Assembly: GCA_964291235.2 (NCBI GenBank)
Contig: OZ219816.1
Location: 1,216,001-1,280,000, forward strand
Length of the DNA: 64,000 bases
Direction of reading: 5' to 3'
From: Vicinamibacteria bacterium
GTDB taxonomy: Bacteria > Acidobacteriota > Vicinamibacteria > Marinacidobacterales > Marinacidobacteraceae
Positions 17,743-22,823 of this stretch are shown here, piece by piece. The notes under the pieces are model-generated. The model made no database searches, was not told where the DNA came from, and saw only the letters and a list, made by a program, of their open reading frames with translations. Within the stretch, counting starts at the first letter, position 1. Each line of letters starts with the position of its first letter. The position numbers were made by a program, and so were the translations under genes.

Positions 17743-17849
17743 GAGGCGGGTGGAATTCGTCCGGTGGCGCCCGCCGCATTGCCGCCTCGGCGGGGTTTCC
17801 GTCATCATTGCGAGCCGCACTCCTCTTTCCGCAAAGGTTGCATTCCAAA

Positions 17850-20414
17850 ATGAAGACGAAATTCCGTTCCCGCCTCGCCTTCCGGTCGGCGCTGGTGTTG
17901 CTGGTAGCCGCCTTTACGGCGGCGCCCGTGTTCTCCCAGGACGCGCCGCCCACCATCGAAGAGAAGACCTCCGGGATGGAGCCGATTTCCGGGTTCGTGC
18001 CGCTCTTCTGGGACGAGCGCACGGGGCACCTGTTCGCCGAGTTCGCAGAAATGGACGAGGAGTTCCTCTATTCGGTTTCGGCGGCTTCCGGCCTGGGCAG
18101 CAACCCGATCGGGCTGGATCGGGGACAGATCAGCCGGCGCGCCATCCTCAAGCCGATTCGGGTCGGCCCGCGGGTGCTGCTCATGGAACCCAACTACCGC
18201 TTCCGTGCCGTCAGCGACAACCCCGACGAGGTGCGCGCGGTACAGGACGCCTTCGCCCCCTCGGTGCACTGGGGCTTCCAGGTGGTGGCGGAAACCGGAG
18301 AGCGGGTCCTCGTGGACATGACCGACTTCTTCCTGCGGGACGCCCACGGTTCCGCAGCGCGGATCCAGCGCGCCGGGCAGGGGACCTACCGGCTGGACCG
18401 GGACCGGAGTGTCTTCTACCTGCCGAACATCAAGGGCTTCCCCGACAACACCGAAGTGGAGACGATGCTGACGTTCACGAGCGACCAGCCCGGGCGGCTG
18501 GTAACCGGCGTCGCCGCCAGCGGGGACGCGGTGACCCTGCGGCACCACCATTCGCTCGTGCGGCTGCCGGGACCGGGTTTCGAGGTCCGGGTGGCCGACC
18601 CCCGCATCGGGGTGAACGGCCCCACCTACATGGACTACGCGACCCCGATCGACCAGCCCATGACGGTGCGGCTGACCGCCCGCCACCGGCTTGAGAAGGT
18701 TGATCCCACCGCGGAACGTTCGGAGGTCGTGGAACCGATCGTGTACTACCTCGACCGCGGCGTCCCCGAGCCGGTGCGCACCGCGCTCCTCGAGGGCGCC
18801 CGCTGGTGGGCCGAGGCCTTCGAGGCGGCCGGATTCATCGATGCCTATCGGGTCGAAGTGCTGCCGGAGGGAGCCGACGCCCAGGACATCCGCTACAACA
18901 TGATCCACTGGACGCATCGCCGCACCCGCGGCTGGTCGTACGGGGGAGGGGTCCAGGATCCGCGAACCGGGGAGATCATCAAGGGCAACGTGAACCTGGG
19001 TAGCCTGCGGCTCCGCCAGGACCACCTCCACGGGGTGGGTCTGGTGGCGCCTTTCGACGGGGCCTCCGGCGCTCCTCCCGCCGGGCTGCCGCCGGATCCG
19101 GACGGACCCCACTCCTGCGGGCTCTCCGCCGCCCCGGGCTTTTCCTATCTGGCCCAGGTGGGCGAGGGCGCGTCGCCGGTGGACCTGGCACTCGCCCGGG
19201 TCGCCCAGCTTTCCGCCCACGAAGTCGGGCACACGCTCGGCTTTCCGCACAACTACATGAGTTCGACCTACGGCGGCCGGGCCAGCGTCATGGACTACCC
19301 GGCGCCGCTCGCGGTCCTCGAGGACGGCGTGGTGAAGCTGGATGACGCCTACGGGGTCGGGGTGGGCTCCTACGACATCCTGTCCGTTCGCTGGGCCTAC
19401 GGACAGTTCTCGCCGGAGGAGACCGCCGCGGCGCTCGACGCCATCATGCAGGAAGGGCTGATGTCCGAGACGCGGTTCATGGCCCACACCGACAACTACA
19501 TCGGCGCGGGCGCCCATCCGCTCGCCTCCGTCTGGGACAACGGCCAGGACCTGGTCCGGCACCTGGGACGCGAAATCGAGATCCGCCAGGCCGGGCTCGA
19601 CGCGTTCGGGGAAAACGTCATCCGGCCGGGCGAGGCCATGTCACTGCTCGAGCCCGTGCTGGTTCCGCTCTACCTGCACCACCGCTTCCAGATGAAGGCG
19701 GCGCTGAACACCGTCGGCGGCCAGGAGTACTACTACGCGGTGCGGGGTGACGGACAGCGACCGGTCGCGTCCGTTCCGGGAAGCCGCCAGCGGGAGGCGC
19801 TCGACATCGTCCTCCAGACGCTCGAAACCGACTTCCTGGCGCTGCCGGAACGGATCATCGAGATGATCCCTCCGCCCGCCTACCGGGAAGCCGGTGGCGA
19901 GACCTTCGACGGCAACACCGGCCTGGTATTCGACCCGCTCGCGGCCGCGGACACCTCGGCTGACTACACGGTGGAGCTCCTGCTCCACCCGGAGCGGATG
20001 GCGCGGCTCGTGAACAATCACGCCCTGGATCCCGACCAACCCGGACTCGCGGAAGTGCTGGATCGACTGGTCGAAGAGACCTGGGGCGCCGCGGAGCCGG
20101 AGGGCAGCTACCGGCGGGCGGTGCAGGACGCCGCCGAGCGGAGCGTCCTGAACGGCATGATGCGCGAGGCGATGAACCCGGACAACCCGGCGCGGGTGCG
20201 GGCGGTCCTCGAGGATCGGCTCATGGCCCTCGGGGGAACGCTCGGTGACATGGACGGTAGAACGCCTCACGAGACGTTGGCCGCCGCCGACATCCACCGG
20301 TTCGCCAACCGCGACGAGAGCCTCGACCCGAACGCCAGCCGTCCGGAGCGGCCGCCGGGATCGCCCATCGGGGGCGCGAGCGCTTCCGGGACGCGGAGGG
20401 TTCCGGGTCGCTGA
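17850..20414 (+). CDS. Secreted zinc-dependent metalloprotease (metzincin; DUF5117/DUF4953-type)
   Basis: Signal peptide, HEVGHTLGFPH zinc motif and Met-turn ASVMDYP. Confidence 0.9.
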   Translation: MKTKFRSRLAFRSALVLLVAAFTAAPVFSQDAPPTIEEKTSGMEPISGFVPLFWDERTGHLFAEFAEMDEEFLYSVSAASGLGSNPIGLDRGQISRRAILKPIRVGPRVLLMEPNYRFRAVSDNPDEVRAVQDAFAPSVHWGFQVVAETGERVLVDMTDFFLRDAHGSAARIQRAGQGTYRLDRDRSVFYLPNIKGFPDNTEVETMLTFTSDQPGRLVTGVAASGDAVTLRHHHSLVRLPGPGFEVRVADPRIGVNGPTYMDYATPIDQPMTVRLTARHRLEKVDPTAERSEVVEPIVYYLDRGVPEPVRTALLEGARWWAEAFEAAGFIDAYRVEVLPEGADAQDIRYNMIHWTHRRTRGWSYGGGVQDPRTGEIIKGNVNLGSLRLRQDHLHGVGLVAPFDGASGAPPAGLPPDPDGPHSCGLSAAPGFSYLAQVGEGASPVDLALARVAQLSAHEVGHTLGFPHNYMSSTYGGRASVMDYPAPLAVLEDGVVKLDDAYGVGVGSYDILSVRWAYGQFSPEETAAALDAIMQEGLMSETRFMAHTDNYIGAGAHPLASVWDNGQDLVRHLGREIEIRQAGLDAFGENVIRPGEAMSLLEPVLVPLYLHHRFQMKAALNTVGGQEYYYAVRGDGQRPVASVPGSRQREALDIVLQTLETDFLALPERIIEMIPPPAYREAGGETFDGNTGLVFDPLAAADTSADYTVELLLHPERMARLVNNHALDPDQPGLAEVLDRLVEETWGAAEPEGSYRRAVQDAAERSVLNGMMREAMNPDNPARVRAVLEDRLMALGGTLGDMDGRTPHETLAAADIHRFANRDESLDPNASRPERPPGSPIGGASASGTRRVPGR

Positions 20415-20420
20415 CCCCGC

Positions 20421-20460
20421 GGAGCGGCGAGTTCGGCTTGACTCGCCGCTCCCGGTTTCT
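20421..20460 (+). terminator. Intrinsic terminator-like hairpin
   Basis: GGAGCGGCGAGT-(8 nt)-ACTCGCCGCTCC, a 12-bp perfect stem followed by CGGTTTCTT, just after the stop codon. Confidence 0.65.
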
Positions 20461-20465
20461 TGTCC

Positions 20466-20563
20466 GGATTCTGCATACTTCCGCGGTAGAGATCGACGCA
20501 GACTGGTTCTCCGCTCGGCGGGAATCCCACCAGCCTTGACGTCGCACGGGCACGGGAGCCCCC
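20466..20563 (-). repeat. Terminal module plus start of an inverted REP-like unit, interrupted by IS110
   Basis: Homologous to 46200-46290 and to the reverse complements of 22740-22823 and 53618-53687; continues at 22102 after the IS. Confidence 0.8.
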
Positions 20564-20565
20564 TA

Positions 20566-20571
20566 TAGGAT
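20566..20571 (+). promoter_or_regulatory. -10 box (TAGGAT) of the circle-junction promoter; the -35 (TTGCGT) is at 22081-22086
   Basis: Joining the right and left ends through one CC gives TTGCGT-17 bp-TAGGAT. Confidence 0.6.
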
Positions 20572-20577
20572 CGGCGA

Positions 20578-20770
20578 CGTCCTGCGGGAGCTGAGATTCA
20601 GCTGCCGTTGTATCAACTCAGGTTGGCCAATCCGCCGGGAGTACTAACTGAGCCCCGGTGCTGCGAGCACCTACGGTGGACACGTACCCCGACGGATGGC
20701 CGTGATGGACGACCAGTGGAGAGTCGGTTCCAATCGAGAACCAGTATAGGGGCTGGACAGCATCGCGGCG
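20578..20770 (+). ncRNA. IS110 bridge RNA (target-binding loop about 20625-20701, donor-binding loop about 20701-20767)
   Basis: Two stem-flanked internal loops whose guide segments match the target (GAGCCCC / CGGTGG) and the donor (GTGGAGAGTC / TATAGG), plus a 5' hairpin AGCTGA-GAT-TCAGCT. The ends are approximate. Confidence 0.85.
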
Positions 20771-20812
20771 CGGCGGACCTCCGACGGAGCGCAAGCTCGA
20801 AGGAAGACAGCG

Positions 20813-22075
20813 ATGAAGCAGAAGCTGAGCTGGTTCGTGGGCATCGACTGGGGCGAGCAGAGCCACCAGGTGTGCCTGTGCGACAGGCGCGGGAAGGTGC
20901 GCGGGGAGCGCGCCTTCGCGCACAAGGGATCGGGGCTGGCGGCCCTGGTGAAGTGGCTTAGGAAGCAGACGGGTGTGCCGCCGGCGCGGGTGGCGGTCGC
21001 GATCGAGCGGCCGGATGGGGCGGTGGTGGCGACGCTGCTGGAGGCGGGGTTTGCGGTCTATGCGGTGAACCCGCGGCAGACGAGCCACCTGCGGAAGTTC
21101 ATCTCCCACCCGGGGCACAAGAACGACCGGCGGGACGCCCGGATGTTGGCCACCACGCTGCAGGCGAGCCTGGCGGGGTTCCGGCTGCTGGTGCCGCTAC
21201 CGGGGTTGGTGCTGCGGCTGCGGGAGCGGACCCGGACGGCGGACCGTCTGCTCCAGGAGCAGGTCCGGCAGTGCCTGCGGATCCGGAGTGCGCTGGTGGA
21301 CTACTTCCCGCAACTGCTGGAGGTAGCCGGCGAGGCGAAGAACCTGGGGACTCCGTTCTTCCGGGAGTTGTGGGCTCGGGCTTCTACGCCGGCGAAAGCG
21401 CGGAAGGTGTGGTTGTCCACGTTGGAGAAGCTGGTTCGGCGGTATGGAGTGACCCGGATCAGCGCCGCGCGGATCCAGGCGTTGTTCCGGGAGCCGGCGT
21501 TGGTGATGGCGCCGGGGGCGACCGAGGCGTCGGTGGAGACGATCCGCACGGCGCTCGCGCAGTTGGAGGTCGTGCGAGCGGAACTCGTCCGGGCGGAGGG
21601 CCAGATGACCCAGCTGCTGGACGAGTTCTCGGAGACGGCGGAGGCCGGGGGTGGTTCGGATGCCACGGGCCTGGATCTGGTGAGCGCGTTGCGCTCACGC
21701 CCGGGCGCGGGGGACAAGGCGCTGGCCCGGTTGTTCGCCTGGGGCTTCGAAGCGCTCTCGGAGGGGAACTACCGCCGTCTGCGCGCCTACTGTGGAGTAG
21801 CCCCGATCGAGGACCAGTCCGGCAAGTCCGCACAGCTCCGGCAACGGCGCGCCGTTCCCAGTTCGCTGCAACACGCCACCTACATCCTGGCGCGGGGGGT
21901 CGTCCGCTGGGACGAGAAGGTGGCGGCCTACAACCGGAAGTTGAAGGCGGAAGGGAAGCACACGGCCCGGCGCCACCGGAGCATCGCGGATCAACAACTC
22001 CGGGTGCTGTGCGCGATGGCCCGGAACCGAACCCTCTTTGATCCCAACTTCTCCCAGAAGCGGAGGGCCGCCTAA
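20813..22075 (+). CDS. IS110 family transposase/recombinase
   Basis: RuvC-like DEDD residues (FVGID, AIERP, KNDRRDA) and the C-terminal YCGVAPIEDQSG serine motif; AGGAAG RBS. Confidence 0.95.
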   Translation: MKQKLSWFVGIDWGEQSHQVCLCDRRGKVRGERAFAHKGSGLAALVKWLRKQTGVPPARVAVAIERPDGAVVATLLEAGFAVYAVNPRQTSHLRKFISHPGHKNDRRDARMLATTLQASLAGFRLLVPLPGLVLRLRERTRTADRLLQEQVRQCLRIRSALVDYFPQLLEVAGEAKNLGTPFFRELWARASTPAKARKVWLSTLEKLVRRYGVTRISAARIQALFREPALVMAPGATEASVETIRTALAQLEVVRAELVRAEGQMTQLLDEFSETAEAGGGSDATGLDLVSALRSRPGAGDKALARLFAWGFEALSEGNYRRLRAYCGVAPIEDQSGKSAQLRQRRAVPSSLQHATYILARGVVRWDEKVAAYNRKLKAEGKHTARRHRSIADQQLRVLCAMARNRTLFDPNFSQKRRAA

Positions 22076-22101
22076 CGCTCTTGCGTTCTCGTGGAAAGTC
22101 C

Positions 22102-22206
22102 ACCGGGAGAACTGGGCCGGCCTCCAGGCTGGCACAGCGGGCCGCAGGCCCGCGTCGGCGCAGACCCCACCCGTCGGCATGGTTCCCGTCTCGGCCCGTA
22201 CCCCAC
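22102..22206 (-). repeat. Remainder of the inverted REP-like unit downstream of the IS
   Basis: GCCGGCCTCCAGGCTGGCACAGC and ATGGTTCCCGTCTCGGCCCGTACCCCAC are near reverse complements of segments of the 121-bp unit. Confidence 0.7.
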
Positions 22207-22270
22207 TCGGCGCGGTGGCCCGGTTTTCTCTGTCGCCAAATGCACCGGTTCTGGATGTCGCTTGACGCAG

Positions 22271-22823
22271 GGCTGGTGGACTTCTCCCCGAGAGCGGAAC
22301 CATCGTGACGCTGGAGAGTCCGTCCGGCCGCCCGCCTGCGGCGGGCTGTGCCGGCCTGGAGGCCGGCGTTCCCGTGCCGGCGCGACATCAAGGCTGGTGG
22401 GGTGGCCGCCGAGAGGGGAACCATCCTGACGCTGAAGGGTCCGTCCCGCCGCCCGCCTGGGGCGGGCTGTGCCGACCAGAGGTCGGCGTTCCCGTGCCTA
22501 CGGGACATTAAGGCTGGTGGGGTGGCCGCGGAGAGGGGAACCATCGTGACGCTGAAGGGTCCGTCCCGCCGCCCGCCTGCGGCGGGCTGTGCCGGCCTGG
22601 AGGCCGGCGTTCCCGTGCCTGCGTGACATCAAGGCTGGTGGGGCGGCGGCCGAGAGGGGAACCGTCCTGACGCTGAAGGGTCCGTCCCGCCGCCCGCCTG
22701 CGGCGGGCTGTGCCGGCCTGGAGGCCGGCGTTCCCGTGCCTGGGCGACATCAAGGCTGGTGGGGTGGCGGCCGAGAGGGGAACTATCTGGCGTTGATCTC
22801 GGCGGCGGGAGTACGAGAAATCC
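22271..22823 (+). repeat. Tandem array of four about 121-bp REP/BIME-like units plus terminal module
   Basis: Units start at 22271, 22392, 22512 and 22633, with a partial unit at 22754. Each holds the palindromes CCCGCC-TGC-GGCGGG and GCCGGCC-TGGA-GGCCGGC. Confidence 0.9.

Follow-up and report, generated by a model that had tools for sequence, protein, structure and literature searches.

The stretch of DNA analyzed here (the window, 64,000 nucleotides; all coordinates are window positions, and all features of the element are on the + strand) contains an IS110-family insertion sequence, and the question raised by this locus is whether two dinucleotides in the non-coding left end of that element, AC at 20680–20681 and GG at 20751–20752, are handshake guides of a bridge RNA. 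In IS621, as described by Hiraizumi et al. (PMC11208158), handshake guides are the two RNA positions that come after each right guide, and these pair with the non-cognate positions 6–7 after top-strand exchange. We conclude, with a probability of roughly 80%, that both dinucleotides are IS621-type handshake guides and that the bridge RNA to which they belong is encoded by the left end of an IS110-group element (1538 bp) with a REP-like target and the core CC.

The insertion sequence spans 20564–22101 if the core CC is assigned to its right end; 20562–22099 describes it equally well. A genome search found five copies, each 1538 bp long and all inside a REP-like repeat. In all five the junctions read ...GGGAGCCC-CC/TATAGG...AAAGT-CC/ACCGGGAG, where slashes mark the limits of the insert, and across the copies the right junction runs ...GGAAAGT-CC/ACC(G/A)GGAGAACTGGGCC.... 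Uninterrupted GGGAGCCC-CC-ACCGGGAGAACTGG sites elsewhere in the genome represent empty targets, and the 12-bp word GAGCCCCCACCG was found perfect and unoccupied at 21 genome sites, compared with 5 for a backwards control. Occupied and empty sites differed by exactly 1538 bp and had CC as the sole sequence in common, so this comparison fixes both the limits of the insert and the CC core without any use of the handshake bases. The initial annotation had argued that the handshake complementarity lends independent support to the boundaries of the element; empty sites and five copies of identical length bear these boundaries out independently. As is usual in the IS110 group, terminal inverted repeats are lacking, and nothing of the target is duplicated except the 2-nt core.

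Read from the flanks, the copies and the empty sites, the left half of the target (LT positions 1–7, GGAGCCC) lies at 20555–20561, with CC at positions 6–7 (20560–20561), where the donor-loop handshake GG is predicted to pair after exchange. The left copy of the core CC follows at 20562–20563; these two bases are all that the left flank and the insert have in common at their ends. The non-coding left end (249 nt, 20564–20812), which encodes the predicted bridge RNA, opens with TATAGG (20564–20569), at once the right donor half and a −10-like hexamer. The right end, delimited by sequence and junctions, is short (26 nt, 22076–22101) and holds a −35-like TTGCGT at 22081–22086, the left donor half GGAAAGT at 22093–22099 and the right core CC at 22100–22101. 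Beyond it the right half of the target runs into the REP-like repeat (22102–22129, ACCGGGAGAACTGGGCCGGCCTCCAGGC), and 20 further partial genome matches to this right-flank stretch start exactly at the right core, many of them being empty sites of the uninterrupted kind. The target is thus GGAGCCC-CC-ACCG and the donor GGAAAGT-CC-TATA. The REP-like family that serves as the target of the element (…GGGAGCCC CC ACCGGGAGAACTGGGCCGGCCTCCAGGCCGGCACAGC…) is represented at 22102–22160 of the window and at the loci L006–L025, and some of its copies are arranged as inverted pairs.

Two neighboring features were also recorded. To the left, an 868-aa ORF (17808–20414) with an HEVGH zinc-protease-like motif is followed directly by a terminator-like hairpin and T run (20421–20452), and the element begins ~110 bp downstream. 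To the right, positions 22288–22787 form a tandem array with a 121-bp unit (4.1 copies, 91% matches), on which contigs of public runs pile up to a summed depth of thousands, compared with tens in the flanks; with such a depth the 121-bp unit is probably a high-copy repeat. The array also contains GGCCGGCGTTCC, a sequence similar to the one targeted by a related element in sister genomes.

The recombinase gene (20813–22075) encodes a protein of 420 aa in which a RuvC-like DEDD domain precedes a Tnp domain. Pfam matches were obtained to PF01548 (E 4.6e-28, residues 9–166, full profile covered) and to PF02371 (E 1.4e-8, residues 292–373). D12, E65, D105 and D108 were invariant across 8 homologs, as was S336, which aligns with the serine of the ESG motif in ISCro4, a putative catalytic serine. 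Among solved recombinases there were weak sequence matches to ISCro4 (PDB 9t56, E 2.6e-7) and to IS621 (8wt6, E 3.3e-6), the latter over an N-terminal stretch only. In the IS110 group the bridge RNA is reported to sit in a long left end (PMC11208160), and here the left end (249 nt) far exceeds the right end (26 nt), which is the length relation given for that group in the same source.

We then come to the RNA itself. A MAFFT/RNAalifold consensus fold of 23 homologous left ends produced two modules, each consisting of a stem, an internal loop and a hairpin, with compensatory changes in 17 of the 26 consensus pairs. The left end folded as a single sequence took the expected shape at an energy that is not unusual; as its z was only −1.56, the alignment fold was used as structural support. 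A scan of 20300–22400 against Rfam 15 with E up to 1 gave 0 matches, which means only that no Rfam 15 model reaches the RNA.

The target-binding loop module (outer stem, internal loop and inner hairpin) covers 20633–20695, and is supported by the fold and by compensatory changes in consensus columns 21–83. Its left guide, GAGCCCC at 20650–20656, was read from the sequence and is alike in the homologs; it equals top-strand LT positions 2–7 plus the first core base and can therefore pair with the bottom strand. The inner hairpin GGTGCT-GCG-AGCACC follows at 20657–20671 (columns 45–62, with compensatory changes in three of four pairs), and then the right target guide CGGTGG at 20674–20679, complementary to the core plus right target CCACCG at 22100–22105. 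Directly after this guide stands AC (20680–20681), which complements donor positions 6–7, GT at 22098–22099, and to which we apply the handshake concept of PMC11208158.

The donor-binding loop module (outer stems, internal loop and inner hairpin) covers 20698–20769 (fold; columns 96–171). Its left guide, GTGGAGAGTC at 20716–20725, was likewise read from the sequence and equals GTGGAAAGT, the tail of the right end on the top strand, with the first core C added, bar one G-for-A, which would give one G.T wobble with the bottom strand; in an 82%-identical relative the same guide reads GTGGAAAGTT. The inner hairpin GGTTC-CAATCGA-GAACC (20726–20742, columns 127–139) separates it from the right donor guide TATAGG at 20745–20750, which complements the core plus right donor CCTATA at 20562–20567 and is followed by GG (20751–20752), complementary to CC at target positions 6–7. 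All four guides and the core agree with the target and donor set by the copies and empty sites. The predicted RNA thus has the two internal loops of the IS621 type, one for target and one for donor, each with a left and a right guide.

With the two handshake bases included, CGGTGGAC (20674–20681, +) is the exact reverse complement of the right junction GTCCACCG (22098–22105), and TATAGGGG (20745–20752, +) is the exact reverse complement of the left junction CCCCTATA (20560–20567). Both relations had been pointed out in the initial annotation, and sequence reading and pattern searches confirmed them. On both strands of the window CGGTGGAC has 11 matches (shuffle mean 4.84; 0/100 shuffles reached 11), whilst TATAGGGG has 2, namely the two sites just given (shuffle mean 0.18; 2/100 shuffles reached 2). 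Taken alone, the recurrence of an 8-mer within the window is weak evidence. It is the placement across the junctions that carries value, because the matches straddle junctions that were fixed independently, so that position matters and not mere existence. With the two 6-nt right guides taken as given, a 2+2 extension of their pairing with the junctions has a chance of ~0.004 with uniform bases and ~0.007 with the composition of the left end.

By complementarity, all four handshake Watson-Crick pairs are available after strand exchange and none of the four before it. Before exchange AC finds no pair at target positions 6–7 (CC), and GG has no Watson-Crick pair with donor positions 6–7 (GT), where a G.T wobble of the first G with donor T7 is possible. 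The statement of the initial annotation that AC and GG mismatch the unrecombined substrates therefore stands for Watson-Crick pairs and has to be softened for that one possible wobble. AC and GG both lie immediately 3' of the core-binding GG of their right guide, which is where the handshake guides (HSG) of IS621 are placed in the published work, and they pair with non-cognate positions 6–7, as is described there (PMC11208158, PMC13626964). The proposed equivalence with the IS621 handshake thus agrees with the published scheme in both position and partner. The result of this complementarity is eight contiguous pairs at each integrated junction, compared with six in the unrecombined target or donor.

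Covariation was assessed among relatives drawn from the same order and from a public collection sampled at one genome per species, with hosts in Vicinamibacteria/Ca. Marinacidobacterium, Rhodothermales, Arenicellales, Alphaproteobacteria and Bryobacterales. Loops were located by regular expressions on the conserved scaffold, and junctions were chosen by the author from right-guide 6-mers and from the similarity of the flanks to the left guides. Copies were collapsed to distinct elements, and the elements counted are related to each other. Left out or collapsed were L108 (which has a broken target loop), L034, the near-duplicates L076, L079, L083, L090 and L139, and further copies. One element (G019; L033/L041/L049), whose right end was not found within 1.5 kb, entered the donor-loop count only, and another (G053; L035/L042/L050), in whose left end no match to its right donor guide was found, entered the target-loop count only.

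Of 22 elements, 20 have a first donor-loop handshake base that pairs with target position 7, the pairs being C:G, G:C and T:A. When handshakes were shuffled among elements the mean was 11.7, and 0/20000 shuffles reached 20; sliding the partner to other target positions gave at most 11/21 (n = 21 as L128 is without upstream sequence), and a programmatic re-extraction agreed. The second base pairs with target position 6 in 7/22 (shuffle mean 5.3, P 0.22), with 4–6/21 in the slid controls. Such counts lie near the slid and shuffled levels, and no selection is visible there; chance or shared lineage may therefore explain why the second G of GG matches. Two elements, L033 and L143, have neither donor-loop handshake pair (0/2). 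The co-variation that had been put forward as a check on the handshake assignment is thus present for the first donor-loop base, in three pair types, and not above chance for the second.

In the target loop the partner GT is invariant in 19/19 elements, and the handshake is AC in 15 of these, AG in two and AT in two. Donor position 7 is paired in all 19, and position 6 in 15, with wobbles in two more. With an invariant partner AC cannot covary; the pairing there is consistent with the handshake, covariation not being shown by it, and AC could be conserved for some other reason. All four handshake pairs are matched in 4 of the 17 elements for which both junctions are available. Overall, the evidence from the family supports selection at the first handshake base alone. 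This clade may already be part of the orthologue-wide covariation tables of PMC11208158.

A 42%-identical element found in three related genomes has the target CCGGAGG-(T/C)C-GGCGTTCC, with hundreds of unoccupied sites. Here target positions 6–7 are GG and the handshake is CC, a double compensatory switch relative to the CC/GG of the window. Six copies of it were inspected (L030, L039, L040, L047, L053, L054; genomes G033, G034, G030), and all six have TC at the left junction and CC at the right, whilst the core of the empty sites is TC in most and CC otherwise. This fits a left junction that keeps the core of the target and a right junction that keeps that of the donor; among the six copies there were no mixed outcomes of the kind expected from a core heteroduplex.

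Several other relatives have features of their own. In a Rhodothermales relative (L111), ~366 nt upstream of the recombinase gene, the left flank is right-end-like (…TTGCTTAAATGGCAGGAAGT plus a C run) and is followed directly by the left end, which is either a head-to-tail arrangement or an insertion beside a solo right end. Another Rhodothermales relative has at least 12 copies of one element (L089–L102) in which the right target guide is a G run and the target a C homopolymer run, and the junction register is ambiguous at the C run. A 67%-identical copy in relative G032 (L074) has an in-frame TAG and no recognizable left junction upstream, and is probably a decayed copy. In relative G033 (L083–L088) an extra insert within the left end is common to all copies, with 614 nt between left junction and gene, compared with ~250 nt in sister genomes.

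It is possible, though we consider it rather unlikely, that only the first base of each handshake is selected, the second bases matching by chance or descent and adding little to direction. The counts at the second donor-loop base (7/22, with slid controls similar) are what this would predict, and the published covariation signal is restricted to position 7, with bridge-RNA positions 81 and 166, in the legend of Extended Data Fig. 7 of PMC11208158. A G opposite C is moreover likely by chance in G+C-rich sequence, and the left end is 34.5% G. It is harder to reconcile with the report that reprogramming the second donor-loop base of IS621 for post-exchange pairing raised recombination, ~1.2-fold in cells and strongly in vitro (PMC11208158), with the 15/19 relatives (and two wobbles) in which the second target-loop base is paired, and with the 42%-identical relative, in which both target positions and both handshake bases have switched, from CC/GG to GG/CC.

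We regard it as improbable that AC in the target loop owes its conservation to the RNA scaffold or to contact with protein, and that it is complementary to the conserved right-end tail ...AGT only as a by-product rather than as a functional handshake. The invariant A, the C in 15/19 and the invariant GT, which leave covariation unable to be shown, would suit such a role, as would the distance of only 1–3 nt between AC and the closing stem G(T/C)(A/G)CC. In the cryo-EM structures of IS621, however, both positions are reported to be paired with donor positions 6–7 after exchange, and their mutation to block exchange (PMC11208158, PMC13626964), and the equivalent position of the donor loop covaries with its partner in our relatives. 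It is scarcely credible that the 8-bp complementarities have nothing to do with an RNA and are due to chance or to inverted repeats of the DNA, despite the frequency of CGGTGGAC in the window (11 matches against 4.84 expected). Each match spans host flank and element end, unlike terminal inverted repeats, the two are located in the 3' arms of internal loops that covary, and the same relation is found in relatives with different targets.

If AC and GG are handshake guides, their likely effect can be judged from IS621. There, cognate handshake pairing is reported to lock the complex and post-exchange pairing to promote recombination (PMC11208158), and the same dinucleotides to act inversely on excision (PMC13626964, 2026). 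The latter source gives wild-type IS621 one Watson-Crick handshake pair before exchange and three after, a pattern it describes as highly conserved among IS110 elements. By analogy, a complex of recombinase and RNA would hold the REP-like target in its target loop and the joint between right end and left end of a circle in its donor loop. Both top strands would be cut 3' of the core by the recombinase, and the freed strand ends would then swap loops and gain AC:GT and GG:CC, 2+2 extra pairs that would pull the exchange toward insertion. Excision, as the reverse reaction within that same target-loop/donor-loop complex, would start from the 'locked' state. We infer from this analogy that the RNA may be tuned to favor integration, as had been suggested at the outset, and that with four pairs after exchange and none before it the element's bias toward insertion would match or exceed that of wild-type IS621 with its three and one.

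Since the first position is paired in nearly all relatives and the second only in some, we also propose, as a doubtful reading, that the second handshake position could act as an insertion/excision dial in natural IS110 elements, with this element and three others of the 17 at the 'locked-in' extreme. If that were true, this element would form its circles almost exclusively by a donor-only or copy-out route, and the element would offer a naturally optimized CC-core scaffold for one-way insertion. Circle formation is itself debated for IS621; donor-only, copy-out excision is the route favored in a 2026 preprint (10.64898/2026.08.31.748434).

The promoter of the IS621 RNA is reported to be assembled across the circle junction (PMC11208160), and the RNA predicted here is, by the same analogy, probably transcribed from a promoter assembled across the joint between right end and left end of the excised circle. 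The −35-like TTGCGT would stand 15 nt before TATAGG and the pair scores 7/12, with a spacer that is short for sigma-70, a measure from which the promoter rules of the host may differ. A TTGnnn hexamer lies 15–16 nt ahead of the first left-end base in 16 of 17 relatives, and the linear copy had no sigma-70-like promoter site. The nine public runs listed for this DNA are all contig sets, with no RNA run among them, a listing that is silent on expression. Contigs of four of them (X1, X4, X5 and X6) over 20300–22400 contained no circle-junction joint, a negative that carries no weight as contigs are unable to show rare forms. A contig of X4 that joins 20563 to 22103 with an intervening G was not counted as an excision product; its shorter side is 27 letters long, and the joint fits another REP copy, of the GCCGGGAG type (L009).

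For annotation, the analysis provides the boundaries of the element, its predicted guide RNA and its REP target, and the element is a possible extra scaffold for bridge-recombinase engineering. The small family survey independently repeats the published picture, in which position 7 covaries and position 6 does not clearly do so.

Compared with known systems, the element resembles IS621 of E. coli, also of the IS110 group, in most respects. Both have a recombinase in which DEDD is followed by Tnp, a long left end encoding an RNA with target and donor internal loops in the order left guide, hairpin, right guide, and a 2-nt core repeated at both junctions. They also share handshake dinucleotides directly 3' of the core-binding bases and complementary to non-cognate positions 6–7, a −35-like box of the right end that is directed toward the first bases of the left end, and a REP-type target. 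They differ in the core (CC here, CT in IS621), in the length of the recombinase (420 aa here, 328 residues in the solved IS621 chain) and in the right guides, which here pair with only the core plus four bases. The handshake gives four pairs after exchange and none before, whereas wild-type IS621 is reported to have three and one (PMC13626964), and unlike that of IS621 the host is an uncultured member of the Vicinamibacteria (Acidobacteriota). The best sequence match to a solved structure is ISCro4 (PDB 9t56), with which the N-terminal DEDD region and the C-terminal region with its SG motif align, a likeness of protein sequence at low identity. ISPpu9 of Pseudomonas putida is likewise an IS110-family element that targets REP sequences, and is described as having a small-RNA gene downstream of its transposase gene, whereas the RNA predicted here lies upstream, in the left end. 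The arrangement is the published norm of IS110 bridge RNAs and this is an ordinary new example with no special feature; notable only are the CC core, the fully matched handshake and the host phylum, the rest being known. The element is a clean natural example of the published handshake rule in a distant phylum, and leaves the known picture unchanged.
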